From: a phage
Strand: one strand, 5' to 3'
Sequence record: PZ256263.1
DNA length: 64,000 nt
Positions 2,627-31,626 of the stretch are shown piece by piece (position 1 is the first letter of the stretch; every line of letters begins with the position of its first letter). A program made the translations under genes and the position numbers. The notes below the pieces were generated by a model. That model was not told the DNA's origin and did no database searches. It saw nothing but the letters and a program-made list of their open reading frames with translations.

Positions 2627-3820
2627 ATGTTTCCAGTAACATTAGAAGATACTGAAGGTAATGTTTTAACGGTCAACCCTCCTTGTTATGGGTTCCTTCA
2701 GCTTCGCAACTATAACGGTGGCGTTGATGAAGATGATGACGAAGATGAATACTTCGACCCTAACATGTATGAGGCAACTCATGGGTGGAATATGCACGTT
2801 CGAGTGTGGCATGAAGAAGCTAACGTTCGTAGTGCTGATGGGGAAGAGTTCCTGTTGAGCCGAGAGATGGATATGTGTAAAATCAAGCATATCTGGAACT
2901 CCGGAACTCACATGAAGATGTTAGGTTTTAGACGTTGGCGTGATGAAAAACCTGTATCCGCAGCTTTAGGTTGGGGTGCTATTGATTACGAAGGCGAGCT
3001 TAAAAACAACATTGAACGTTGGAATGACAAAAACCCTGAACATCGAACCACACCTCGTGCTGTACTGGAAGCTATGGAAGCATTTGTGGACAAAGATCGT
3101 CCCTCCTGTTTACGCTGGCACGATAAAGGTTTTATGGGGGTAGCAACTGAAAATGTTCCTGCTGATCGTTGTCTATTCTATTTGATGTTAGATCGAACCT
3201 TCTATTGTGAAGATGAAGAGAGTCAAGTTGAAACCTTCCTCCACAAATGGTTGGTTGAAGGCTGGACAATCCTTCAGTCTTATGTTTACTCACGAATGGT
3301 TAGCACTTACACTAACCTCTTGGGTGAAACGAAAGCAACTCTGGTTGGTAATGATTGGGATGCTTGTATCTTCCCAGCGTCACTATTTACAGTCGGCATG
3401 GCTGATAAATACGCTGAAGCATTTCAAGTGCCTTGGCGTCAACAGTCGTATAGAGACGGGTGTGGTCACTTCCGTGATGAAGACTTTAAGTGGATTCATT
3501 ATGAGAACGATGAAACAGCAGAATTGCGAGTTAACAACTCAATGTTCTTGCCAGTGATGCACCCCGATCTAGTAAAAGATGGGTCAGAGATACTTAAAGG
3601 TGATAATCTTTTGGTTAACTTTACCCGTCGCGTGTCTAAAAATGAGAGAACAGCTAACAGGCTAATCTACGGCATTCGTGCCGAGGCTAAAGACCTGTTC
3701 AACATCTACAACATTATTCAGCGATTTAGTAGTGGAACTCTGGACCAAAGTTCGGAGTATTCAGTGATTCCATCCTCTGAGTGGGATGGTATTATGAGCG
3801 GATTATTTTTAGGAAAATAA
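2627..3820 (+). CDS. hypothetical protein, first gene of amidoligase/GATase cluster
   Basis: Track ORF 397 aa; tightly packed with downstream genes; no recognisable motif. Confidence 0.6.
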   Translation: MFPVTLEDTEGNVLTVNPPCYGFLQLRNYNGGVDEDDDEDEYFDPNMYEATHGWNMHVRVWHEEANVRSADGEEFLLSREMDMCKIKHIWNSGTHMKMLGFRRWRDEKPVSAALGWGAIDYEGELKNNIERWNDKNPEHRTTPRAVLEAMEAFVDKDRPSCLRWHDKGFMGVATENVPADRCLFYLMLDRTFYCEDEESQVETFLHKWLVEGWTILQSYVYSRMVSTYTNLLGETKATLVGNDWDACIFPASLFTVGMADKYAEAFQVPWRQQSYRDGCGHFRDEDFKWIHYENDETAELRVNNSMFLPVMHPDLVKDGSEILKGDNLLVNFTRRVSKNERTANRLIYGIRAEAKDLFNIYNIIQRFSSGTLDQSSEYSVIPSSEWDGIMSGLFLGK

Positions 3821-3830
3821 AAGGTTAGTT

Positions 3831-4802
3831 ATGTCAATCTCCACAACGATCGTACCTCAGAATCTTCAACAAGATTTAGGGGAACAGAAGTTCTTAGGTC
3901 GTGGGTGCTTCGGTATTCACAACTACATGCAAGGCCAGTGTGTAAATGACATTAATGGTGAAGTTATCACGGAAGAAGGGCGCTATCGTCGCTTCAACCG
4001 CGATATCAACTTGCAACTGGAGATGTTGAATTACTGGACTCACTCTTTTCATGGTCATGTTGCATCCGATATTGAAAAGAACTTGATTGAAACAGCGGAC
4101 ATTATGAACTCTATGTCTTGCTATCGTGATGTATTTACAATCACTTCAGCGAACAGTGTTGCTGTCAATCTTCGTGAGCATCCAGCAGATCAGATCTTCA
4201 CAGGACTTATGCTCTTCCGTAGCATTCTGGAAGGGCAGTATCGTGGAATGGATTTCCTAGCAGAAGGAATTGAAGACAGGGAAGAGTGGCTGAAGCGTAA
4301 ACGCATCGGAATCGCTCTAGTGTTAGCTGGGTTAGGTCGTGACTTCTTCGGTGGGTGGTCTCAACGAGGAATAGCCAATGGGAATAGCGAGAGCACCTCT
4401 ATTGTTATTAATAACAATATGTCAGCAGCAGCATTCCTTCCTTTGGTTGTAGACTCTGATGAATACACGAAACAAGTATGGGTTCAAAATCCCTTCGGTG
4501 TTGGTGACAATGAGAATGGTTATGTTCGTAACCATAACCCAGAGGCCTTACGAAGATTTGCTCGTGCTAAAGATCAAGACCCAACTGAGTATGCAACAAT
4601 GTCAGAGTGGTTAAGACTCTGGTCCATCTGTTATGGTCACAAACGTGAAGCAATAGACGACAAGTTGGGAAACATTACAGTACAAAACTTTACAGCCCGA
4701 CTGATTCAAAGAACTGGAGCAGATTCCGGTCTTACTCTTGAAGAAGTTGGTAACACAATCTCATCTCTCTTTTCTGAACTAGTGGAGTATTACAATGACT
4801 AA
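3831..4802 (+). CDS. hypothetical protein (cluster member)
   Basis: Track ORF 323 aa; overlaps next gene start by 8 nt. Confidence 0.6.
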   Translation: MSISTTIVPQNLQQDLGEQKFLGRGCFGIHNYMQGQCVNDINGEVITEEGRYRRFNRDINLQLEMLNYWTHSFHGHVASDIEKNLIETADIMNSMSCYRDVFTITSANSVAVNLREHPADQIFTGLMLFRSILEGQYRGMDFLAEGIEDREEWLKRKRIGIALVLAGLGRDFFGGWSQRGIANGNSESTSIVINNNMSAAAFLPLVVDSDEYTKQVWVQNPFGVGDNENGYVRNHNPEALRRFARAKDQDPTEYATMSEWLRLWSICYGHKREAIDDKLGNITVQNFTARLIQRTGADSGLTLEEVGNTISSLFSELVEYYND

Positions 4803-5601
4803 GCGCAAATTCCTCATCGGCTCTGACCCTGAAATGTTCGTTCGTACTAACAACGGTATCATCACCTCTGTGGCTGGTCTGTTAGGCTGTTCTAAGGACG
4901 ATAAGATCACTCTGGCTAAGGATGTTCGTCTTCAAGAGGACAACGTACTGGCTGAGTTTGATATTGACCCACAGAGCGGCTTTGAAGCGTTTAACGATAA
5001 CATGCAACGTGGTATCGATCTCACCAACAATGTCCTGAACAAACTGGACATGGAAACAGCTCCGGGTGTTAGCTCTCACATCTTCACTGAAGAAGAGATG
5101 AAGACTTTCAATGAATCAGCGTTCATCTTCGGATGTACTCCTGATTTCAACGCTTTCACTGGTCAGAAGAATCCATCCCCGACTTCTCAGAACAAGGGGC
5201 TTCGTACTGCCGGTGGTCACGTACATCTTGGCGTAGTTGGTGCTTTGGATATCACCCTGCAAACTCAGATGATGCTGGGTGTGCTGTGTGACTATTTCCT
5301 GTCCCTCCCAGCAGTTATTATGGATAAAGATACTCGCCGTAAAGAACTCTACGGTAAAGCGTCTGCAATCCGTTATAAAGACTATGGTATTGAATATCGT
5401 TCACTGTCTAACTTCTGGATTAGTGATCGTGAAAACCGTAAGTTTGTTTATGATCAGGTTGACAAAGTTGTTCAGCAGTGTGATATGTCCACTCTGATGG
5501 CATTGCACTCTCGCCTTCCGATTGAGAAGCTTCATGAAATCATTAACGGCAACAACGTTAAAGAAGCGGACCAGCAGATCAAACTCCTTCAGGTAGCATA
5601 A
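4795..5601 (+). CDS. amidoligase-like (carboxylate-amine ligase) enzyme, paralog 1
   Basis: Track ORF 268 aa; motif series GSDPE ... LAEFDIDP ... GGHVHLG ... YGIEYRS parallels the series in ORF 6225-7328. Confidence 0.55.
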   Translation: MTKRKFLIGSDPEMFVRTNNGIITSVAGLLGCSKDDKITLAKDVRLQEDNVLAEFDIDPQSGFEAFNDNMQRGIDLTNNVLNKLDMETAPGVSSHIFTEEEMKTFNESAFIFGCTPDFNAFTGQKNPSPTSQNKGLRTAGGHVHLGVVGALDITLQTQMMLGVLCDYFLSLPAVIMDKDTRRKELYGKASAIRYKDYGIEYRSLSNFWISDRENRKFVYDQVDKVVQQCDMSTLMALHSRLPIEKLHEIINGNNVKEADQQIKLLQVA

Positions 5602-5610
5602 GAGGTTATC

Positions 5611-6228
5611 GTGAGCTTAGTAGCTGATTTTTCTCATTACTATAATGGTACATGGATTGCTAAACGAGCAGGTAATATCAACCTTCCGTGTTTTGTGATT
5701 GGTGTTGAGCAGAGCGGTAACTTCCGCAGTGATGACTTCTCTCACGAAGCAGAACAGGCTCTGTACTTTGTTGTAGAGCAGTGGTACAAGAACGAGCAAG
5801 GGAATCTTCGAAACACTACGATGAACATTCCAGTGTTCGACCCAACCTTGATTCTTGAATCACCTGATGTTGGTTATCTGTTCCATAACGGTAACACTGT
5901 AAGCTGGACTCATATTAACCCTGTTCGTCAGAGAGCAAAGGGTTTAATGGGTAATAAGATTCGAAATGCTCCGGGTGTTGGTCGTGCTATCTCCGGGGAG
6001 ATGGTTTACAGTCTGTTCAATCCTGAATTCGAAGGATTGGTTACTCGTTATATTTACATCAACCCTACTGATGGTAAGGTGCATTATAAAGGTGCACTGG
6101 TAGGACAAGTAGATCTGGAAGCGCCTCGTGACTCTTACGGTCAGCAACCGATGCGACTTCTGGAACACTTTCATCACATTTCTGAAAACCTTAGCAATTA
6201 TAATATTACGTTGGTGGATTCGTTATGA
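5611..6228 (+). CDS. hypothetical protein (cluster member)
   Basis: Track ORF 205 aa starting at GTG with AAGAGG upstream; overlaps next gene by 4 nt. Confidence 0.55.
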   Translation: MSLVADFSHYYNGTWIAKRAGNINLPCFVIGVEQSGNFRSDDFSHEAEQALYFVVEQWYKNEQGNLRNTTMNIPVFDPTLILESPDVGYLFHNGNTVSWTHINPVRQRAKGLMGNKIRNAPGVGRAISGEMVYSLFNPEFEGLVTRYIYINPTDGKVHYKGALVGQVDLEAPRDSYGQQPMRLLEHFHHISENLSNYNITLVDSL

Positions 6229-7328
6229 CAACTGTAGCGCAAACTTTTGGATATCGAGAAGGTCGTTTAACTGAGGAGCATAGTTCAATTGCACTTCAGT
6301 GCGGTGTCGGTATTGAACTTGAACTCGAAGGTTCCGATCATATCGAAGCAGATATGTGGGATTGTACAGAGGATGGTTCCCTGCGTAATGGTTGTGAAAT
6401 GGTATGTTCACGACCTTACAACGGACAGGAGTTGTTAGACGCTATCAACAACCTGAGTGAAGCAGTAGCTGAATCGCACGCCGAGGGGACTTGGCGTTGC
6501 TCTACTCACGTTCATATGGATATGAGGGATGCTGATAGTAATATCCTCAAGAAAACCATTCTCGCTTGGACCTTCTATGAAAAGATGTTGTTCAAGTGTT
6601 CAGGCTATCATCGTTACCGTAGCAACTTCTGCCCTGCTTTCGCAGTGGTACAGGCACAGGTAATGAATGCCTCTGACGCATTTAACTACGACGACGAAGA
6701 GTTCTTCAACCGTCTGGTTCGTTCATGGGATAAGTACACATCCCTAAATCTTCTGCCACTTGCCCAATACGGTTCGATTGAGTTCCGTATCAGTGAGCCT
6801 AAGTGGAAACGTGGTCAACTTCTCAATCTGGTTAACCGCTTCTTGATGTTGAAGAAGCTGGCTTTAGATAACGCAGAGATGAGCAATGATCAGTTTATCG
6901 AGCATTTAAATACTGTACGATTTGCCCCAATGCTTCCTTATCTTCCTCTGGATTACAATCTGGATGAATCGGATTTGCATTCAGGGTATTGTATGGCCCG
7001 TGATGTTTTGTATTGTCGTTCTCATGGAGTAGAGCAATCTGGTCGTATTCGTTTACGTCGAACCAACTCTAACGGAGAAGTTCTTGTTGATTTACGTCTT
7101 ATCTCAGACTTCTACGGATTCCTTGGATATGTTCGAGGGAACGCTAACAACTTGTACCAAGAGATTCTGGTTATGCTTCGTACAACTGATCTATCTACTG
7201 TACGATCTGCACCGGAGCAACGTATCCGTGCTATTTTTGACTTGCTACGTGAGTCAGGCCACAGTGATAACAACATCACAGGGTACATTCCAGATCATCT
7301 GGAAAATCAGTTAGAGCAAGCGCTGTAA
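6225..7328 (+). CDS. amidoligase-like (carboxylate-amine ligase) enzyme, paralog 2
   Basis: Track ORF 367 aa; GIELELEG ... EDGSLRNGCEMVCSRP ... STHVHMD ... YGSIEFRISE, consistent with phage amidoligase family signature as I recall it. Confidence 0.6.
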   Translation: MTTVAQTFGYREGRLTEEHSSIALQCGVGIELELEGSDHIEADMWDCTEDGSLRNGCEMVCSRPYNGQELLDAINNLSEAVAESHAEGTWRCSTHVHMDMRDADSNILKKTILAWTFYEKMLFKCSGYHRYRSNFCPAFAVVQAQVMNASDAFNYDDEEFFNRLVRSWDKYTSLNLLPLAQYGSIEFRISEPKWKRGQLLNLVNRFLMLKKLALDNAEMSNDQFIEHLNTVRFAPMLPYLPLDYNLDESDLHSGYCMARDVLYCRSHGVEQSGRIRLRRTNSNGEVLVDLRLISDFYGFLGYVRGNANNLYQEILVMLRTTDLSTVRSAPEQRIRAIFDLLRESGHSDNNITGYIPDHLENQLEQAL

Positions 7329-7407
7329 TCAATGGGTGCCTCTGGTAAAGGGGCACAATTTAAAGGTTAATTAGATGAAAGGGTTTACCCTTCAGGTGGA
7401 TTAGAAA

Positions 7408-9438
7408 ATTTGTGGCATCGTATTAGCTGGCGGTAATCTGTCAAGCACTGATTTAGACGTATTCAACCAACTCTTTTATGCTGGAGTATTCCGAGGACAG
7501 CACTCCTCTGGTATCTTTGGTCAGCGTAAGAGCACTAAGGAAGTCTTCACTTATAAAGAGGCACTTCCTTCTTTCGCATTCATCCTTCAAGATGAGTACA
7601 AGAAACACACCACTGGTGAAACAGCTTACACTGTAGCACCTTCATGGATTGTTGGTCACAGCCGTCATGCAACGAAAGGTGCAGTTAACGCCAAGAACGC
7701 CCATCCTTTCCAACATGGTAACATCACTCTGGTTCATAACGGAACCTTGATGGACCAAGATCTGTTACCTGACAGCAAAAACTTCGAGGTAGACAGTGAG
7801 AACATCTGCCACTCTATTAACACTATTGGTGCAGCAGAGACTATTCAAAAGCTGGATGGTGCTTTCACCTTAATCTGGCATGATGCTTCTGATAACCGTC
7901 TTCATATCATCCGTAACGAAGAGCGTCCATTCCACCTCGCACGTTGTAACAGGGATTGGTTTGGTGCTTCTGAAGAAGACATGTTGATGTGGATTCTAAA
8001 GCGTTCTAAGTCTCACAAAAACCGAATTGATGAGCACTTTGAATGTAAAGTTGGTACAGAATATATCTTTGATATGTCAAACAACAGCATGACTCTAGTT
8101 GAAGAGGTCGCCCACGAGCTTCCGGTTTTTACGGTAATCAATCGTTGGGGCAATTACTACTCGAACAACTACAGCCAAAGCAGCTATCAAAGTTCCTCAA
8201 AAAGCAGTACAAGCAATCCTTACGACACGAAGCCGGGAGTGACAGCGGCAGACGTTCGTCGAAGAAACGCAGTGGTAAGTCAAAACAAAATCGCAAGCGA
8301 TCGAAACATTGACATTCGCCGCGACATGACTGTGGAAATCACACCACATGAGTTTGTTCCTTATGCAACTGCTGGTGCTGTTCCTTCTCGTGGTAAGATG
8401 ATCGGTTATATCTACGATGAGAAGTCTCAAGAGTATATCGAAGGTGATGTTCATAACGTAGACATTAAGGCTTATCAGGATGCCCTGAAAGACCCTAAAA
8501 TCGTTTACCGTGGGACAGTATCCTGCATCTCCGAAGTTAATGCTATGGTTCGTTTAGTGATCACAGCAGGTCGTTTTGTTGACCCATCTCTGGAGAAAAA
8601 GGAGCCTGAGTCTACTACTGCTGACTTCGATGATGATATCCCTTTTGACATGAATGATAGTTTCGTCAATAAGAATGGCGTTACTATCACTCGTAAATTC
8701 TGGGAAGCACACTCTCACGGGGATTGTGGTGGTTGTGACAAACATATTGATTGGAAGGATGCACCTAAAGCAGTCTTCGCATATCAATGCTACTGGCACC
8801 CTGAATGTCTGGAAGGTTTGACTAAACCTAAAGATGAAGAAGAGGAGGAAACTCCTATTGGTGTTTGTGAAATCTGCGGTGAAGTTAAAACAGAGAATGA
8901 GTTCGATGAAGAGCTTAGTCGTCTTCGTGGTGAAGATATCTGTAAAGTCTGCGCTGTAGATGTAAAGAAGAAAGTGTCTAATGCTACGATCAAAGATGGT
9001 TATGTCTGGATTAAAGCAACAGATACAACAAACGCCCGTCGTCCTGAATTTGCTTTACGTGTAACTGAAGATATGATTGGTCGTATGACTGTATTACCTT
9101 CCTCAGCGAAACAGACAGGCATCACTCTGGAGGATGTTGTTGATGCTTATGTTGAGAAACGTAGCAACAGTATTTTTGCAATCTCAACTAAGCCAAAAAA
9201 GGAGGAACCTGCTGAGAAAGCAGGTGTGTTTCCTGAATCACGAACAGCTCTCCGCAAAACTGTTGTCAGCTTCGACGGAAACCGAAGCACTGACTTCACC
9301 AAAGCCATGTGGTCAACCCTCGGATACTGCTCAGAGTGTTTTAAGCAGATTCCGTGGCGCGATGCTGAAAGTTGTACGCTTGGTTCTATGAATCAAGTTT
9401 ATTGTAATTCTCCTAAATGTTCATTGAATAGAGGTTAA
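7408..9438 (+). CDS. class II (Ntn-type) glutamine amidotransferase domain protein with Cys-rich C-terminal region; predicted ATT start
   Basis: Frame is open from the TAG at 7402-7404; translation begins (I)CGIVLAGG...FRGQHSSGIF and continues ...GHSRHATKG...NAHPF...LVHNG, the class II GATase pattern; no in-frame ATG/GTG/TTG before 7747; AGGTGGA at 7394-7400 sits 7 nt before ATT. Confidence 0.65.
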   Translation: MCGIVLAGGNLSSTDLDVFNQLFYAGVFRGQHSSGIFGQRKSTKEVFTYKEALPSFAFILQDEYKKHTTGETAYTVAPSWIVGHSRHATKGAVNAKNAHPFQHGNITLVHNGTLMDQDLLPDSKNFEVDSENICHSINTIGAAETIQKLDGAFTLIWHDASDNRLHIIRNEERPFHLARCNRDWFGASEEDMLMWILKRSKSHKNRIDEHFECKVGTEYIFDMSNNSMTLVEEVAHELPVFTVINRWGNYYSNNYSQSSYQSSSKSSTSNPYDTKPGVTAADVRRRNAVVSQNKIASDRNIDIRRDMTVEITPHEFVPYATAGAVPSRGKMIGYIYDEKSQEYIEGDVHNVDIKAYQDALKDPKIVYRGTVSCISEVNAMVRLVITAGRFVDPSLEKKEPESTTADFDDDIPFDMNDSFVNKNGVTITRKFWEAHSHGDCGGCDKHIDWKDAPKAVFAYQCYWHPECLEGLTKPKDEEEEETPIGVCEICGEVKTENEFDEELSRLRGEDICKVCAVDVKKKVSNATIKDGYVWIKATDTTNARRPEFALRVTEDMIGRMTVLPSSAKQTGITLEDVVDAYVEKRSNSIFAISTKPKKEEPAEKAGVFPESRTALRKTVVSFDGNRSTDFTKAMWSTLGYCSECFKQIPWRDAESCTLGSMNQVYCNSPKCSLNRG

Positions 9439-9440
9439 GT

Positions 9441-9674
9441 ATGGAAATTCGTAAGATGATGCTGGATAACGTTGTAACCACTCGACGTATCCCGATGACG
9501 AGCACAGGATGTGATAACCTTCGTGCAATCCAGAAGTGGATGCAAGCTGGTATTGGTCAAGTACTTGAGACACAGGTTGAGGTTCCTTTCCCAACGGTGA
9601 TCAATAACGTACTTGCTGATTATGTAAAAATCAAAGGCATTAAGGTAGAACCTCATGTCAAATCTGGTTCCTAA
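9441..9674 (+). CDS. hypothetical protein
   Basis: Track ORF 77 aa immediately after GATase stop. Confidence 0.5.
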   Translation: MEIRKMMLDNVVTTRRIPMTSTGCDNLRAIQKWMQAGIGQVLETQVEVPFPTVINNVLADYVKIKGIKVEPHVKSGS

Positions 9675-18935: not shown

Positions 18936-19211
18936 ATGTCTAAAGTAATTAAGTTTTATAGTGATCAGTGTGCTCCATGTAAAGCAATGGCTCCTACCTT
19001 TGAGAAGGTTGTTAAGGAGTTTGATGTAGAAGTGGAAGAGATTAACATCCTTGAAGGTGATGGTCGTGAACAAGCTGTTAAGTATGGTGTACGAAGTATC
19101 CCTGCTTTCGTTGTGCCTGACCGTAACAGTGGTGCACACTACAGCCTCTCCGGTATGCAGACTGAAGCAAACCTGAAAGCATTTTTGGACACAGCCCTGA
19201 GAAATAAGTAA
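18936..19211 (+). CDS. thioredoxin-like protein
   Basis: Track ORF 91 aa; CAPC active-site motif near the N-terminus. Confidence 0.7.
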   Translation: MSKVIKFYSDQCAPCKAMAPTFEKVVKEFDVEVEEINILEGDGREQAVKYGVRSIPAFVVPDRNSGAHYSLSGMQTEANLKAFLDTALRNK

Positions 19212-19226
19212 TAAGGATATTCACGG

Positions 19227-19883
19227 ATGAATGAACAACTACAAGCAACATTAATTGAAGCTATGGGAAGTGATCGTAGCGTAGTAAACGCAGCTCGAGT
19301 TTCCTTTGGCGTAACCCGTGAAGGTGATTTAAATGAACGTGATGAACGTCTCATCAACTTTCTCGCAAGAGAGAAGCATGTTACCCCATTCCGACACCCG
19401 CAAGTCAGTTTCCGATGCAAAGCACCTATTGCAATTGCGAGACAGTTGGGCAAGCATCAGGTTGGATTCTCGTGGAACGAAATGTCCCGGCGGTATAAAG
19501 ATGGAGCAGTTGAAGTCTTCATCCCTAAAGAGATTTTTGCGAGACCTTCGGACCTCCATGCAGGTTCAGGGGTTCAACTCATCGACGGAGAGCGAGCTGA
19601 AGCATTAATGCTGATTAACGATTCATATGAAGCTTCTCTAGCAGCATATGACAAGTTGATTGAATTTATTGCACCAGAGCAAGCTCGATTTGTTCTTCCT
19701 CAGGGGATGATCACTGAGTGGGTGTGGACCGGTTCTTTGTATGGCTGGTTTGAGTTGTGTCGTCAGCGACTCTCCTCTCACGCTCAATATGAAGTTCGAG
19801 TGTTTGCTAAATCTCTAGATGAAGAGATGGCTAAGCTCTACCCAATCTCGTGGGCAGCTCTGAAGAAAACTTTGGAGAGTTAA
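19227..19883 (+). CDS. thyX: flavin-dependent thymidylate synthase
   Basis: Track ORF 218 aa; NAARVSFG ... QLGKHQVGFSWNEMSRRY matches the ThyX signature, with KHQ where RHR is usual. Confidence 0.75.
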   Translation: MNEQLQATLIEAMGSDRSVVNAARVSFGVTREGDLNERDERLINFLAREKHVTPFRHPQVSFRCKAPIAIARQLGKHQVGFSWNEMSRRYKDGAVEVFIPKEIFARPSDLHAGSGVQLIDGERAEALMLINDSYEASLAAYDKLIEFIAPEQARFVLPQGMITEWVWTGSLYGWFELCRQRLSSHAQYEVRVFAKSLDEEMAKLYPISWAALKKTLES

Positions 19884-19899
19884 TATCAGAGGCTTTCTG

Positions 19900-20133
19900 A
19901 TGAAAATCAAACATATTACAGATATTCAGGAGGCATTTAGAATGCTTCCTCGAAGAGAGAAGGATAAGATTAAAAAGCTTATTCAAGTTTATGGTCATAC
20001 ATCTAAAGATGATGTAGACTATATGCCTTCTACTTTCGTAGAGTGTGGGATTGCTCGCGGTTTCACATTCGACCATAAAGTGTTTCAGCAATTCGTTGAC
20101 CACTGGAGAAAAGATGGAAAAGAAAGTCTGTAG
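19900..20133 (+). CDS. hypothetical protein
   Basis: Track ORF 77 aa. Confidence 0.45.
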   Translation: MKIKHITDIQEAFRMLPRREKDKIKKLIQVYGHTSKDDVDYMPSTFVECGIARGFTFDHKVFQQFVDHWRKDGKESL

Positions 20134-20299
20134 CTTCTGTAAGAAAGAGAAGCCTATCATCAATTTTAAGCCCAATCCTGTGACTGGTTTGTCTCATGTT
20201 ATGTGCCACTCCTGTAGGACATACCTTGAAATAAAACACACTATCAATAGGTTGCATTATTATCACCCAACAACATTCAAATTTAAGGTTGTGAAATGA
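20114..20299 (+). CDS. small Cys-rich zinc-ribbon-like protein
   Basis: Internal ATG (residue 24 of track ORF 20045) preceded by GGAGAA; MEKKVCSFCKKEK...MCHSCRTYLE has two CxxC pairs. Confidence 0.4.
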   Translation: MEKKVCSFCKKEKPIINFKPNPVTGLSHVMCHSCRTYLEIKHTINRLHYYHPTTFKFKVVK

Positions 20300-20499
20300 A
20301 AACTTTGTGGACTCTTGACTGCCAAGACGATGACGGAGAGCGTTGGACTTGGAAATATTTCCTAGGGAAACCGACACCTGATAACCCTGCTTTGGATTGT
20401 GCTTCATATGAAGACGCCAAGAAATTGGTAAACGGAGAGAAAGTTTGGTCTCCGGATAATGAAGTTATGTACTTTTTAACAGAACGGAAATTTTCATAA
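20296..20499 (+). CDS. hypothetical protein
   Basis: Track ORF 67 aa; overlapping stop/start on both sides. Confidence 0.45.
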   Translation: MKTLWTLDCQDDDGERWTWKYFLGKPTPDNPALDCASYEDAKKLVNGEKVWSPDNEVMYFLTERKFS

Positions 20500-20828
20500 T
20501 GATCGATGGTAATACATTTAGGACTTCAAATGGAAGTGAAATAAGTCCCGCTGAAGTAATCAATCGGCATAGAAGGCAATTGATCATCCATTCCTATTTG
20601 TATTACTGGTTGGATGACCCTATCTGGTCTGATGATAAATGGCAACAAGTTGCTAATGATTTGGTTGAGTTGCAAGCCTTATATCAAGAGCCTACCGGAG
20701 TCTTTGACAATGAGTTCAAAGATTGGGATGGTTCTACAGGAATGCATCTCCCACACAACGAGGCTGTTGCTTGTATGGCGACAGCTGTTTACAGGATTCA
20801 TAAAGATATGAACCATGAAGTGCTCTAA
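20499..20828 (+). CDS. stand-alone protein resembling domain Ia of NAD-dependent DNA ligase
   Basis: Track ORF 109 aa; RRQLIIHSYLYYWLDDPIWSDDKWQQVANDLVELQ resembles the LigA N-terminal Ia helix pair. Confidence 0.45.
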   Translation: MIDGNTFRTSNGSEISPAEVINRHRRQLIIHSYLYYWLDDPIWSDDKWQQVANDLVELQALYQEPTGVFDNEFKDWDGSTGMHLPHNEAVACMATAVYRIHKDMNHEVL

Positions 20829-21000
20829 ATGTGAAGGAACAAACCTTCATTTAAGTAATAAGGTTATCAGAGAGCTTGCCAAAGGCTCTCCAACCAAAGG
20901 GAAGAACAAACGATTTACTAACGTCAGGGTTTATACAGCAATCTGTAAAGACTGCTTAACTACTGAGTGTCATTACGAAGAAATTGGAGAGCGTAAATGA
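20815..21000 (+). CDS. small zinc-ribbon protein
   Basis: Track ORF 61 aa; CSKCEG ... CKDCLTTEC. Confidence 0.45.
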   Translation: MKCSKCEGTNLHLSNKVIRELAKGSPTKGKNKRFTNVRVYTAICKDCLTTECHYEEIGERK

Positions 21001-21734
21001 GTCGTCGTCAATCACGGAAAGAATCACGGAAAGACCTTCGTCGGGAAGCACTTGTCACTCGTAAGGGTAAGCGAGAGTTTGAAGAGGTGGTTTTAGCAAA
21101 GCCTGTAGTCCCTCAGAACCAGTTTCAGTCTGAGCTACTCAATGCTATTAAGACTAAACAAGTTGTGTTCACAGACGCTCCTGCGGGCTGTGGTAAGACC
21201 TTTGTAATCACTTCCACAGTTATTGATGCACTGAAGAGTGGTAAGATTCAGAAGATCATTCTGAGTCGTCCTTCAGTTGGTATGGGCAATTCTCTTGGGT
21301 TGCTTCCGGGAGGGATGCGTGAGAAGTTTGAACCTTACCTGATGCCTATCATTGATGTTATTACTCAGCGATATGGTAAGGGGTTCTATGAATGCCAGCT
21401 CGGTAACAGTAACATTGAGTTCGTACCTCTGGAATATCTCCGTGGTCGTTCTTTCAATGATGCTATTGTTATTGTTGATGAGTTCCAGAACACAACTAAA
21501 GATGAAGCCTTCTCAATCATGACTCGATTGGGAGAAACCTCTCAGCTGTTCTGCATGGGTGATACTAACCAGCATGATATGCGTGGTCGTGAGAGTGGTC
21601 TTACTTGGGCTACTAACTTTATTGATGAACATGATCTGTATGAGTTCGCTGAGATTGTAGACGGAGAATCAGATGACATTGTTCGTTCTGGTTTTTGTAA
21701 GGCGATTGTTAAAGCAATGGAAAAGAAAGCTTAA
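20997..21734 (+). CDS. phoH: PhoH-like ATPase
   Basis: Track ORF 245 aa; Walker A DAPAGCGKTF, Walker B IVIVDEFQN. Confidence 0.75.
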   Translation: MSRRQSRKESRKDLRREALVTRKGKREFEEVVLAKPVVPQNQFQSELLNAIKTKQVVFTDAPAGCGKTFVITSTVIDALKSGKIQKIILSRPSVGMGNSLGLLPGGMREKFEPYLMPIIDVITQRYGKGFYECQLGNSNIEFVPLEYLRGRSFNDAIVIVDEFQNTTKDEAFSIMTRLGETSQLFCMGDTNQHDMRGRESGLTWATNFIDEHDLYEFAEIVDGESDDIVRSGFCKAIVKAMEKKA

Positions 21735-21745
21735 ATAGTAACTTA

Positions 21746-21754
21746 TAATGTATA
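21746..21754 (+). promoter_or_regulatory. TAATGTATA motif, candidate phage-sigma-dependent promoter
   Basis: Exact TAATGTATA 12 nt after phoH stop, about 24 nt upstream of AAGGAG and the ATG at 21791; a second degenerate copy TAATGTACA follows. Confidence 0.5.
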
Positions 21755-22409: not shown

Positions 22410-22413
22410 AACA

Positions 22414-22446
22414 AAGGCTGCCTAATCAGGTGGCCTTTTCTTTTTT
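22414..22446 (+). terminator. rho-independent terminator
   Basis: 9-bp stem aaggctgcc/ggtggcctt with 6-nt loop followed by tttcttttttat, immediately after ORF 22116-22409. Confidence 0.65.
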
Positions 22447-23621: not shown

Positions 23622-25466
23622 GTGAGCAACCCGGACGCTCTCCCATTTTTGACAGAGATGACTGTCGCTGATATAATCTCTAAGCAAGCAAAGCACGGAG
23701 TGAGTTTCAACCGAAGAAATGCTCGGTGGTATGTTCACCTCCTTAAAGAGATTATTGTTAATATTGACAAAGAACTGATTCCTCTCTTACCTAAGATGAG
23801 ATTAGATGGCTCAACTTATATGAAGCCGTTTAAGAAGTCTGGAGCTTTACAGAAGTGGCCTCAAGCCTATTGCGATAGAGTTGGCCTCAAGAGAGAAGAC
23901 ATTGGTGGAGCATTCACCTGTGTCGAGTACGTAGACTTTGACCCATCGAAAGATGCACGAGTTAAAGAAGCCCTTATGGATGAGGGTTTTCTTCCTCCAG
24001 AGTTTAACGTATCTAAAAAGCCTTGGAACACTTTCGAAATTAAGAAAGACATGCGAAAGTATGGAACATACCAAGCATGGTACACCGCTTGGATGCGAGG
24101 CAATGCTAAACAGAAACAGACAGCCGAGATGGTTGACGCTGATATTAAGAAGTTCTTAGAGAAACACTTTAGGTTCAAGACTAAGAACTACATGAAGGCT
24201 TATGTGTTTGGTTTGGGATTAAACCCTAACCGACGTAACCCTGTAACATTTGACGAGATTAAGAAAGCACTAGCTACCTCAAACAAGTGGCCTACAGCTC
24301 CTACAAACCTCGAGGAGACTCTTGAAGAAGGGTTAGGGGGTGAGCTAGGGAGTGTCGGAAGTTTGCTTAAGAGACGTGTTGTAGCGGCTCACAGGCTAGG
24401 TCTTATTAGTGGACTTATAGCAAAGGAGCGCGAAGATGGTAAACTTTCGGCAGAAGCTAACAGCTGCGCTACGCCGACTTTTCGATTCAAACATCGTATC
24501 GTGGTTAATATTCCCTCCCGTGGTTTGTTTGGTCATGAGTGTCGCAGTTTGTTTGAGTCTGACTATAACTCAGATGATGATCACTCTCGTCCTTTCGTTA
24601 TTACTAACGTTGTTCCTGATGGTTGTTATATACGAAAAGGTACTAACGTAATTTATGAAAAAGGTAAGCCGGGGAAGAAAGATAAGCCTGTAGGTGCTTA
24701 CAAATATTACATACCCGCTGGTAAAGAAGTATTCTTAGGGTATGATGGTTCTGGATTAGAGTTGCGTATGCTTGCACACTACCTCATTAAAGAGTGTAGA
24801 GATATGCTTGCTGAAGCAATAGAAGAAAACAATCCAGCTAAGAAAGCTCTGGCAGAACGTGGTTTAGCTTCTGCTATTATGTATCGTGATATTCTCCTTG
24901 AAGGTGATATCCACTCTCACAACCAGAAACTTGCTGGTCTTCCTACTCGTGACAACGCTAAGACATTTATCTACGCATTCAACTATGGTGCTGGTGATGC
25001 TAAGCTCGGTTCAATTGTAGGTGGTGGGGCTGACGAAGGTTCAGTGATGCGAGCACGTTTCTTGGCAGAGAACCCGTGTATTGCAATCCTCATTGATCGT
25101 ATGACAGAGAAAGCTGCTCAAGGATACTTGATTGGTGTTGATGGTCGTAAGATTACAATGAGACGGGATGCCACTGGTAAGGTTATGGTTCATAAAGCAC
25201 TTAACACCCTCCTGCAATGTGCTGGTGCTGTTGTTATGAAATATGCTATGATGTTCCTTAACAAGTGGATTGAGAGAGATGGGGTTCGTTGTGCTAAGGT
25301 AATTGATATGCACGATGAGGGCCAGTTCTCAGTGAACCGTAATGATGTACAGAAACTCAAAGAACACACCGAGCTTTGTGTTAAGAAGGCTGGTGAGTAT
25401 TTGAACATGGAATGTCCTCTGGCATCTGATTGTCAGATTGGACTTAACTGGATGCATACACACTAA
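23622..25466 (+). CDS. DNA polymerase, family A polymerase domain (T7 gp5-like), lacking the 3'-5' exonuclease motifs
   Basis: Track ORF 614 aa (GTG start, AGGAG upstream); motif A GYDGSGLELRMLAHY, motif B RDNAKTFIYAFNYGAGDAKLG, motif C HDEGQF, C-terminal GLNWMHTH. Confidence 0.9.
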   Translation: MSNPDALPFLTEMTVADIISKQAKHGVSFNRRNARWYVHLLKEIIVNIDKELIPLLPKMRLDGSTYMKPFKKSGALQKWPQAYCDRVGLKREDIGGAFTCVEYVDFDPSKDARVKEALMDEGFLPPEFNVSKKPWNTFEIKKDMRKYGTYQAWYTAWMRGNAKQKQTAEMVDADIKKFLEKHFRFKTKNYMKAYVFGLGLNPNRRNPVTFDEIKKALATSNKWPTAPTNLEETLEEGLGGELGSVGSLLKRRVVAAHRLGLISGLIAKEREDGKLSAEANSCATPTFRFKHRIVVNIPSRGLFGHECRSLFESDYNSDDDHSRPFVITNVVPDGCYIRKGTNVIYEKGKPGKKDKPVGAYKYYIPAGKEVFLGYDGSGLELRMLAHYLIKECRDMLAEAIEENNPAKKALAERGLASAIMYRDILLEGDIHSHNQKLAGLPTRDNAKTFIYAFNYGAGDAKLGSIVGGGADEGSVMRARFLAENPCIAILIDRMTEKAAQGYLIGVDGRKITMRRDATGKVMVHKALNTLLQCAGAVVMKYAMMFLNKWIERDGVRCAKVIDMHDEGQFSVNRNDVQKLKEHTELCVKKAGEYLNMECPLASDCQIGLNWMHTH

Positions 25467-28762: not shown

Positions 28763-28771
28763 TAATGTATA
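28763..28771 (+). promoter_or_regulatory. TAATGTATA motif, candidate phage-sigma-dependent promoter for the SSB-like gene
   Basis: Exact motif about 46 nt upstream of AAGGA and the ATG at 28831. Confidence 0.5.
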
Positions 28772-29985: not shown

Positions 29986-30129
29986 ATGTAGGGTTGACCT
30001 GCCTCTTTTAGAAAGTGCTCAAGGAAAAGCACTAGCCACTACGTTGGAGTGGTATCAGGACCAGTACACAGAATGTGCTGCCAATCACAATGGATTGCTA
30101 GAAGCTCTGAAAGAGCGTGGAATAGAATA

Positions 30130-30130
<1 letters not shown>
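29870..30130 (+). CDS. o-spanin-like (Rz1-like) lipoprotein, +1 frame overlapping i-spanin 3' end
   Basis: Internal ATG of track ORF 29771; MRKLNQFFIMSALVMSMSAC signal with lipobox-like MSAC; Pro-containing mature part. Confidence 0.45.

Positions 30131-31616
<1,486 letters not shown>

Positions 31617-31626
<10 letters not shown>

Follow-up and report, generated by a model that had tools for sequence, protein, structure and literature searches.

A stand-alone homolog of the NAD+-binding domain Ia of bacterial DNA ligase encoded by a phiEco32-group phage

The gene and its product

The phage sequence PZ256263.1 is analyzed here over a stretch of 64,000 nucleotides, referred to as the window, whose + strand holds most of the early and middle region and whose − strand has the late genes. 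The subject is a gene for a 109-residue protein matching the Pfam family Nlig-Ia (Table 1). It is found exactly where the initial annotation had placed it, and the peptide quoted there, HSYLYYWLDDPIWSDDKWQQVANDLVELQ, corresponds to residues 31-59. Many Escherichia podophages of the phiEco32 group (Kuravirus, Gordonclarkvirinae) match the surrounding 4 kb at 94-97% identity. The protein is 97% identical to phiEco32 gp62 (phi32_62) and 76% identical to ECBP2_0056, with which it shares the synteny ThyX-x-Nlig-Ia-PhoH-...-PolA. The ratio of nonsynonymous to synonymous substitution (dN/dS, Nei-Gojobori) is 0.066 against phiEco32 and 0.114 against ECBP2, values low enough to indicate a real gene under purifying selection. 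RefSeq labels gp62 as "DNA ligase", and other GenBank records have "NAD-dependent DNA ligase".

The only above-threshold Pfam match is PF22745 (Nlig-Ia: DNA ligase-like, N-terminal NAD+-binding domain), which scores E = 1.6e-34 and 118.8 bits against a cutoff of 27, aligning protein residues 16-102 to positions 1-90 of the 92 in the model. There is also a match to PHROG 6466 at E = 2.8e-42. A single-sequence phmmer search of the PDB gave ligases only at E = 0.4-0.7 with STN1 matches equally weak, and since this was not decisive, a family profile was built from 56 diverse homologs. With that profile E. coli LigA is found as PDB 5tt5, 4glx, and 2owo at E = 1.5e-4 to 5e-4 with LigA residues 2-53 aligned, and 20 of the 27 matches are NAD-dependent ligases, each aligned at the N-terminus. 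Alignment by hhalign of the family to E. coli LigA 1-103 has a probability of 95.9% and E = 6e-9. The AlphaFold2 model (pLDDT 93, pTM 0.84) has helices at residues 17-37, 45-61, 70-73, and 88-106, including the helical hairpin that is the fold of LigA domain Ia, and an H-x-Y-L-Y motif is common to LigA Ia and the phage protein along with the Asp and an aromatic residue of the nicotinamide mononucleotide (NMN) site. The check proposed with the initial annotation, a profile search against LigA Ia, thus returns significant similarity in the Pfam, PDB-profile, and hhalign comparisons alike, and its claim of a stand-alone LigA Ia homolog without an adenylation domain is borne out. The protein is almost certainly a solo Nlig-Ia, a LigA Ia homolog without the catalytic domain.

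The nucleotidyltransferase (NTase) domain with its motif I lysine (KxDG) and the OB fold are absent from the open reading frame (ORF) and from the window. When full-length E. coli LigA is used as a tblastn query, the sole match in the window is the Nlig-Ia ORF (LigA residues 12-51, E = 0.11) and the sole match in the complete phiEco32 genome is gp62 (E = 0.015), with no LigA-like NTase, OB, or HhH segment in any frame of either. Neither Pfam scanning of + strand ORFs nor the reference annotation shows an ATP-dependent ligase, although no dedicated search was made for one, and the phiEco32 annotation has no ligase besides gp62. About 13 kb of the phage genome lie outside the window, and for that part the search for a ligase covers phiEco32 only. 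What the Pfam scans do identify is a primase-helicase, a separate 3'-5' exonuclease, a dCTP deaminase, an HNH endonuclease, a Dps-like protein, thioredoxin, ThyX, PhoH, PolA, a metallophosphatase, the macro, sigma, and SLOG proteins, a 5'-3' exonuclease, and an amidoligase cluster. The phage encodes its own primase-helicase, a split PolA, and a 5'-3' exonuclease. Having neither a catalytic lysine motif nor an NTase domain, the Nlig-Ia protein cannot ligate, and the label "DNA ligase" is wrong, which corrects a widespread misannotation, since the name is used in dozens of records of Kuravirus, Arthrobacter, Clostridium, and Enterococcus phages. Because the phage has no ligase, host LigA is presumably needed for joining its lagging-strand fragments. 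The same situation is general in the family, as 80 of the 81 phages in which Iyer et al. (PMC9503650) found a solo Nlig-Ia have no ligase catalytic module.

Predicted ligand site and C-terminal half

In LigA, the nicotinamide of NAD+ is sandwiched by two tyrosines of domain Ia (PMC7470946). The counterparts of the 5 residues of the LigA NMN site, E. coli Y22, H23, D32, Y35, and D36, were counted in the phage family over 273 sequences. LigA Y22 aligns with Y35 of the window protein and H23 with Y36, and each of these positions is Tyr in 271 sequences. LigA D32 aligns with D45, which is Asp in 272. The position of LigA Y35 is W48 here, being Trp in 243 sequences, Phe in 20, and Tyr in 9 (aromatic in 272 of 273), and that of LigA D36 is Q49, with Gln in 212 and Asp in 41. 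Hence, 2 of the 5 identities are retained and 3 are replaced conservatively (H23 to Y, Y35 to W, D36 to Q), and the aromatic pair that stacks on nicotinamide in LigA is present in kind as Y35 and W48. The systematic replacement of 3 site residues is a feature of the subfamily; the versions in Gram-positive phages retain a LigA-like Y/F-D pair. The near-invariance of the 5 positions indicates that they are under strict constraint. Sriskanda and Shuman, whose paper is reference 14 of PMC7470946, reportedly found in 2002 that these 5 LigA residues are required for reaction with NAD+. On the strength of the aligned site, we consider it probable, though well short of assured, that the phage protein binds NAD+ or NMN.

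Beyond the hairpin there is a half of the protein that by sequence has no LigA counterpart, as the LigA alignments end at about residue 63-66 (LigA residue 53). It consists of the short helix 70-73, a conserved loop F73-x2-W76-x-G78-x-T80-G81-x-H83-L84-P85, and helix 88-106. The window protein has every one of the loop residues F73, W76, G78, T80, G81, H83, L84, and P85, which are invariant or close to it across the family, and pLDDT is high throughout this half of the model. It may complete the pocket that the NTase domain completes in LigA. Covariation of loop residue 83 with site residues 48 and 49, which would have placed the loop near the pocket, gave no clear signal in the family alignment.

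Distribution of the family

The solo Nlig-Ia family is already known: it is in Pfam, it has been described computationally, and an ortholog of the window protein is the published example. Iyer, Burroughs, Anantharaman, and Aravind (2022; Viruses 14:1977; PMC9503650) reported solo Nlig-Ia in 81 phages, giving ECBP2_0056 as the example, and proposed that these proteins are NAD+ sensors, or NAD+ shields against NADase effectors. Our exhaustive profile search finds 1133 representative clusters (50% identity) at E ≤ 1e-3, with 617 at E ≤ 1e-10, and the best 150 of the 1133 are all 61-321 residues long. Among cultured phages, the family occurs in kuraviruses of Escherichia, Shigella, and Salmonella and in phages of Arthrobacter, Clostridium, Enterococcus, Erwinia, Rhodococcus, Carnobacterium, and Streptococcus. 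The gene order in Arthrobacter phage TforTroy is primase/helicase-PolI-x-Nlig-Ia, in Clostridium phage CS29 it is DnaC-DnaB-NrdD-Nlig-Ia-NrdG-primase-dUTPase, and in Enterococcus phage ZJGS2 and Carnobacterium phage cd3 the gene is near a replication initiator. Flanking zinc-ribbon ORFs are found in the phiEco32 group only.

A few family members are longer. One of 321 residues (P0256) has 2 or 3 tandem Nlig-Ia domains, and in 2 of 290-315 residues (P0183 and P0206) Nlig-Ia is followed by a C-terminal part that matches PHROG 13900, "minor head protein", through either a real fusion or merged gene calls. These tandem and PHROG 13900 fusions were considered as a clue to function and set aside as uninformative, perhaps being gene-call fusions. 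Separately, T5-like Salmonella phages have an NAD-dependent ligase annotated as "subunit A", implying a naturally split NAD ligase.

Clamp-binding-type tails in relatives

In a first set of 120 homologs, 18 have a Pro/Ala-rich linker followed by an exact terminal QMSLF, QLSLF, QASLF, QMGLF, QMALF, or similar, and these 18 are nearly all the proteins in that set of at least 110 residues. Tailed homologs include P0022, P0023, P0028, P0059, P0121-P0123, and P0253, and the loci L002:10001-10369 and L004:4594-4962; none has a close relative among cultured phages. Over 267 family members, with ORFs from the same fetched loci as controls, a terminal Q-x-x-L-F is present in 26 members versus 0 of 495 controls. 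Counting any terminal LF adds 12 members with a basic linker and then LF, for 38 of 267 versus 4 of 495, and an N-terminal M-x(1-3)-L-F is present in 13 of 267 versus 3 of 497. Several family members have LF at both termini. On a neighbor-joining tree, the Q-type tail requires at least 9 gains or losses, which indicates a recurrent feature and not an accident of a single clade.

The consensus peptide for binding to the bacterial beta clamp is QL(S/D)LF, and the E. coli clamp touches DNA ligase directly and speeds ligation (PMC9690074). As a sequence match, the tails thus suggest a place of action at the replisome and host LigA, and for the window protein they do so by family association alone. 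They are new relative to Iyer et al. 2022, where the word "clamp" occurs 0 times.

Gene neighborhood and transcription

The ORFs around the Nlig-Ia gene are tightly packed. Its ATG and the TAA of the upstream 67-residue ORF have one base in common (TAATG), and its 3' end shares 14 nt with the next ORF, of 61 residues, which in turn runs into PhoH through an ATGA overlap, so from the sequence the chain looks translationally coupled on both sides. The 67-residue ORF is an insertion relative to phiEco32, and both of its junctions read AATGA, with start/stop coupling kept on each side.

Table 1. Positions of features in the window
Feature	Position	Strand	Comment
Nlig-Ia gene	20499..20828	+	ATG at 20499, TAA end 20828, 109 aa; ortholog of phiEco32 gp62 and ECBP2_0056
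Two-helix hairpin (H17-37, H45-61), residues 16-61	20544..20681	+	Homologous to LigA Ia (E. coli LigA ~2-53)
Predicted nicotinamide-nucleotide site Y35, Y36, D45, W48, Q49	20601..20645	+	Aligned to E. coli LigA Y22, H23, D32, Y35, D36
Family-specific C-terminal half, residues 62-106	20682..20816	+	Conserved columns; LigA alignments end before it
Peptide or metabolite modification cluster	2627-12205	+	phiEco32 type
456-aa nucleotidyltransferase	14711-16081		
gp36-type (phage sigma) middle promoter core AATGTATA	17266..17273	+	Upstream of gp68-like gene; motif search and PMC8948821 consensus
HNH_3 homing endonuclease ORF	17636-18130	+	Between gp68-like and Dps-like genes
Terminator-like hairpin	18694-18722	+	After Dps-like gene
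Thioredoxin	18936-19211	+	Upstream, Nlig-Ia unit
ThyX	19227-19883	+	Upstream, Nlig-Ia unit
77-aa ORF	19900-20133	+	PHROG 4452 "anti-restriction nuclease" (E = 1.5e-31); between ThyX and gp63-like; absent here in phiEco32
gp63-like zinc-ribbon ORF	20114-20299	+	Upstream, Nlig-Ia unit
67-aa ORF	20296-20499	+	No Pfam or PHROG match; between gp63-like and Nlig-Ia
61-aa CxxC...CxxC zinc-ribbon ORF (gp61-like)	20815-21000	+	Downstream, coupled
PhoH-like ATPase	20997-21734	+	Downstream, coupled
gp36-type promoter core	21747..21754	+	Directly after PhoH; divides Nlig-Ia unit from downstream units
Terminator-like hairpin	22413-22438	+	After 97-aa ORF
Sigma-70 consensus match	23649-23677	+	Within first 60 nt of PolA ORF (GTG 23622)
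gp36-type promoter core	28764	+	Ahead of gp40-like gene
Macro	30049-30570	+	Pfam
Phage sigma factor	30590-31237	+	Between macro and SLOG
SLOG/YAcAr	31234-31626	+	Pfam; overlaps sigma gene

There are 6 exact copies of AATGTATA in the window (17266, 21747, and 28764 on the + strand; 28702, 38595, and 55172 on the − strand) versus 2.4 expected by chance, and they coincide with mapped middle and late promoter positions of phiEco32 (PMC8948821), with 28702 and 28764 as a divergent pair. The first 2 + strand cores place the Nlig-Ia gene in a 17266-21747 unit with Dps, thioredoxin, ThyX, and PhoH, the order being Trx-ThyX-...-Nlig-Ia-...-PhoH, and PolA is 3 kb from Nlig-Ia. The core at 17266 is likely the start of that unit, and by homology to the experimentally mapped phiEco32 program, we infer that Nlig-Ia is a middle-class gene.

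In the initial annotation, the gene was said to share a module with macro and SLOG. All are on the + strand in a broad cluster of middle genes, but adjacency and cotranscription do not hold, since macro and SLOG are 9.2-10.4 kb downstream, past the DNA polymerase gene and the 2 promoter motifs at 21747 and 28764, and together with sigma they lie in the unit starting at 28764. Such a gap with promoters intervening means that "same module" is overstated and valid only for a loose middle-gene cluster. The macro, sigma, and SLOG genes are themselves tightly packed, an NAD/ADP-ribose (ADPr)-type pair on both sides of the transcription switch gene.

Several other features of the region may be recorded here. 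The homing endonuclease ORF is between 2 genes that are neighbors in phiEco32 and is probably a mobile insertion. The 2 terminator-like hairpins, each an 11-bp stem with a T-run, bracket the Trx-ThyX-Nlig-Ia-PhoH region. At the beginning of PolA there is a perfect 12/12 sigma-70 consensus (TTGACA-17-TATAAT, with an upstream TG), which would make it an internal promoter unless translation of the polymerase really begins further downstream. Closer to the left end of the window, the genes for a COOH-NH2 ligase, an amidoligase, a glutamine amidotransferase, an ATP-grasp protein (RimK/Ddl-like), and a gamma-glutamyl cyclotransferase form a phiEco32-type peptide or metabolite modification system.

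Possible function

The reading that we prefer, and hold tentatively, is that the protein would support nick sealing by host LigA at the phage fork, through NAD+ buffering or hand-off or through removal of NMN. The Y35/W48 aromatic pair and D45 would hold free NMN, or NAD+ by its nicotinamide-nucleotide half, and Y36 and Q49 would stand in for LigA H23 and D36. The protein would then act in trans on host-LigA-dependent sealing during phage replication, keeping NAD+ available for LigA adenylylation or taking away the product NMN when NAD+ is scarce, as for example under host NADase defenses. It would be an NAD+/NMN buffer or hand-off factor tied to the replisome and LigA, and not a free-standing signaling sensor. 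The preferred reading fits because the phage has no ligase, because genes of the family are placed in replication modules, and because relatives have clamp-type tails; the middle-class expression alongside replication genes that homology to phiEco32 predicts also speaks for it. The coupling to LigA and the replisome, taken as a claim of its own, is possible and we put it forward with reservations.

A number of points weigh against this reading. The window subfamily has substitutions at 3 of the 5 LigA NMN-site residues. The window protein has no clamp-binding peptide, its termini being MIDGNTF and ...HKDMNHEVL, so that the replisome link has to be carried over to it from relatives, about 10-18% of them. 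The gene is surrounded by tRNA or hypothetical genes in the large phages Trina and ChrisDB, and a search over 6 other phage lineages and 2 metagenomic contigs turned up no partner gene that is conserved. We know of no precedent for Ia working in trans on LigA. A search of the literature found no experimental work, on binding or activity, for any member of the solo Nlig-Ia family. The NAD+ pocket of LigA is made jointly by Ia and the NTase domain (PMC7470946), and hence a solo Ia may bind weakly or may bind another ligand. Finally, Iyer et al. 2022 (PMC9503650) take the missing phage ligases as a sign of independence from ligase.

The proposal of Iyer et al. 2022 is a free, ligase-independent NAD+ sensor that reports NADase deployment, or a shield that sequesters a protected NAD+ pool. 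It was published for this very family and for the ortholog ECBP2_0056, and it is consistent with the conserved ligand-site positions, with the lack of ligase catalytic modules in the phages, and with the presence in the same phage of other NAD/ADPr-network domains, macro and SLOG, although these are not adjacent. The functional ideas of the initial annotation, NAD/NMN binding, sequestration, and modulation of host LigA, come near to this proposal and are plausible from the sequence. As a sensor, the 109-residue protein would need an output, and it has neither an output domain nor a conserved partner gene for signaling; as a shield, it would have to protect a millimolar metabolite stoichiometrically, which is expensive for a small protein. 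Neither version explains the recurrent clamp-type tails and the replication-module placement. We are doubtful of it for these reasons but consider it nearly as likely as the preferred reading, and it is the more conservative choice for a window protein without a tail.

The LigA-supporting reading has a more specific form, a virus-host "split ligase" in which the phage Ia, clamp-tethered in some lineages by Q-x-x-L-F, would govern how host LigA loads NAD+ or releases NMN at phage Okazaki nicks. We regard this form as unlikely. If it were true, ligase-less phages would be made resistant to NAD+ depletion.

Somewhat less likely again is the opposite effect on the host enzyme, that the solo Ia displaces LigA's own Ia by docking on the LigA NTase, or is a competitor for the clamp, and so blocks adenylylation and host nick sealing. 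The protein does share the fold of the very domain which has to close onto the NTase in step 1, the tails of its relatives would place it where LigA works, and host-takeover factors are typically of this kind, small phage proteins of the middle class. Such inhibition would be self-defeating for a ligase-less phage that presumably needs host LigA for lagging-strand joining, and steric competition would not need strictly conserved ligand-site residues.

A sponge for NAD-derived immune signals (cyclic ADPr isomers), in the anti-Thoeris mode of Tad1 and Tad2, is quite improbable. The idea was raised with the initial annotation, and the protein is indeed small, of an abundant type, and predicted to have a nucleotide-binding pocket, in a phage whose macro and SLOG domains act on or bind ADPr-type ligands. 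However, Ia recognizes the NMN half of NAD+ (PMC7470946), nicotinamide is lost in ADPr-derived signals, and the Pfam, PHROG, and PDB searches give no similarity to known sponge families.

Harder still to credit is one half of a split NAD-dependent ligase whose catalytic subunit is encoded elsewhere in the phage. NAD ligase "subunits" are annotated in T5-like phages and one phage with a separate catalytic module is described by Iyer et al. 2022 (PMC9503650), but neither the window nor the phiEco32 genome has LigA catalytic similarity, and + strand Pfam scans and the reference annotation have no ATP-dependent ligase domain. The 456-residue nucleotidyltransferase, considered as the partner, was rejected because its match is a weak, sub-threshold one to the PolyA_pol head (Pol-beta fold), which is not a ligase fold.

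The GenBank labels "DNA ligase" and "NAD-dependent DNA ligase" would suggest a decaying remnant of a full-length phage ligase or a genuine small ligase, and this is effectively refuted by conservation and domain content: dN/dS is 0.07-0.11, the protein has its own conserved C-terminal half, the best 150 of the 1133 clusters stay within 61-321 residues with conservation from Arthrobacter and Clostridium phages to coliphages, and the catalytic lysine motif and NTase domain are absent.

Whichever function applies, a solo Nlig-Ia marks phages without a ligase that are presumably reliant on the host NAD+-dependent ligase, and this reliance implies vulnerability to NAD+-depleting defense systems, now known to be common. 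If NAD+/NMN buffering for replication or LigA tuning is the true function, these proteins would be a new kind of counter-defense or replication accessory factor, and also a natural minimal NAD+/NMN-binding module with possible use as a biosensor.

Comparison with known systems

Tad1, Tad2, and Acb2 are phage proteins that work as small-molecule sponges or buffers. The window protein is like them in being a small, non-enzymatic phage protein whose sole evident capacity is the predicted binding of a ligand of the nucleotide type, within a metabolite network relevant to conflict. It differs in having no sequence or fold similarity to them, and its expected ligand, NAD+ or NMN, is a primary metabolite and not an immune second messenger. 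Compared with clients of the beta clamp such as Pol II, Pol IV, delta, and Hda (PMC9690074), the layout of a terminal peptide on a flexible linker, with predicted binding, is shared by 26 of 267 relatives and not by the window protein.

The comparison to LigA is one of homology over a two-helix hairpin, which in E. coli belongs to domain Ia at residues ~1-69 (PDB 2OWO, 5TT5, 1TAE). Unlike LigA, the window protein is not fused to NTase, OB, Zn, HhH, or BRCT domains, and unlike LigA Ia, it is extended by 15 residues at the N-terminus and carries a conserved C-terminal lobe of 45 residues. The closest system is solo Nlig-Ia (PF22745) itself, to which the window protein belongs as an ortholog, likewise solo and in a ligase-less phage, with nothing essential differing. 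What is added here to the description by Iyer et al. 2022 is the systematic replacement of 3 site residues, the conserved C-terminal half, and the clamp-type tails in about 10% of the family, the last of which give a concrete, testable handle missing from the published proposal.

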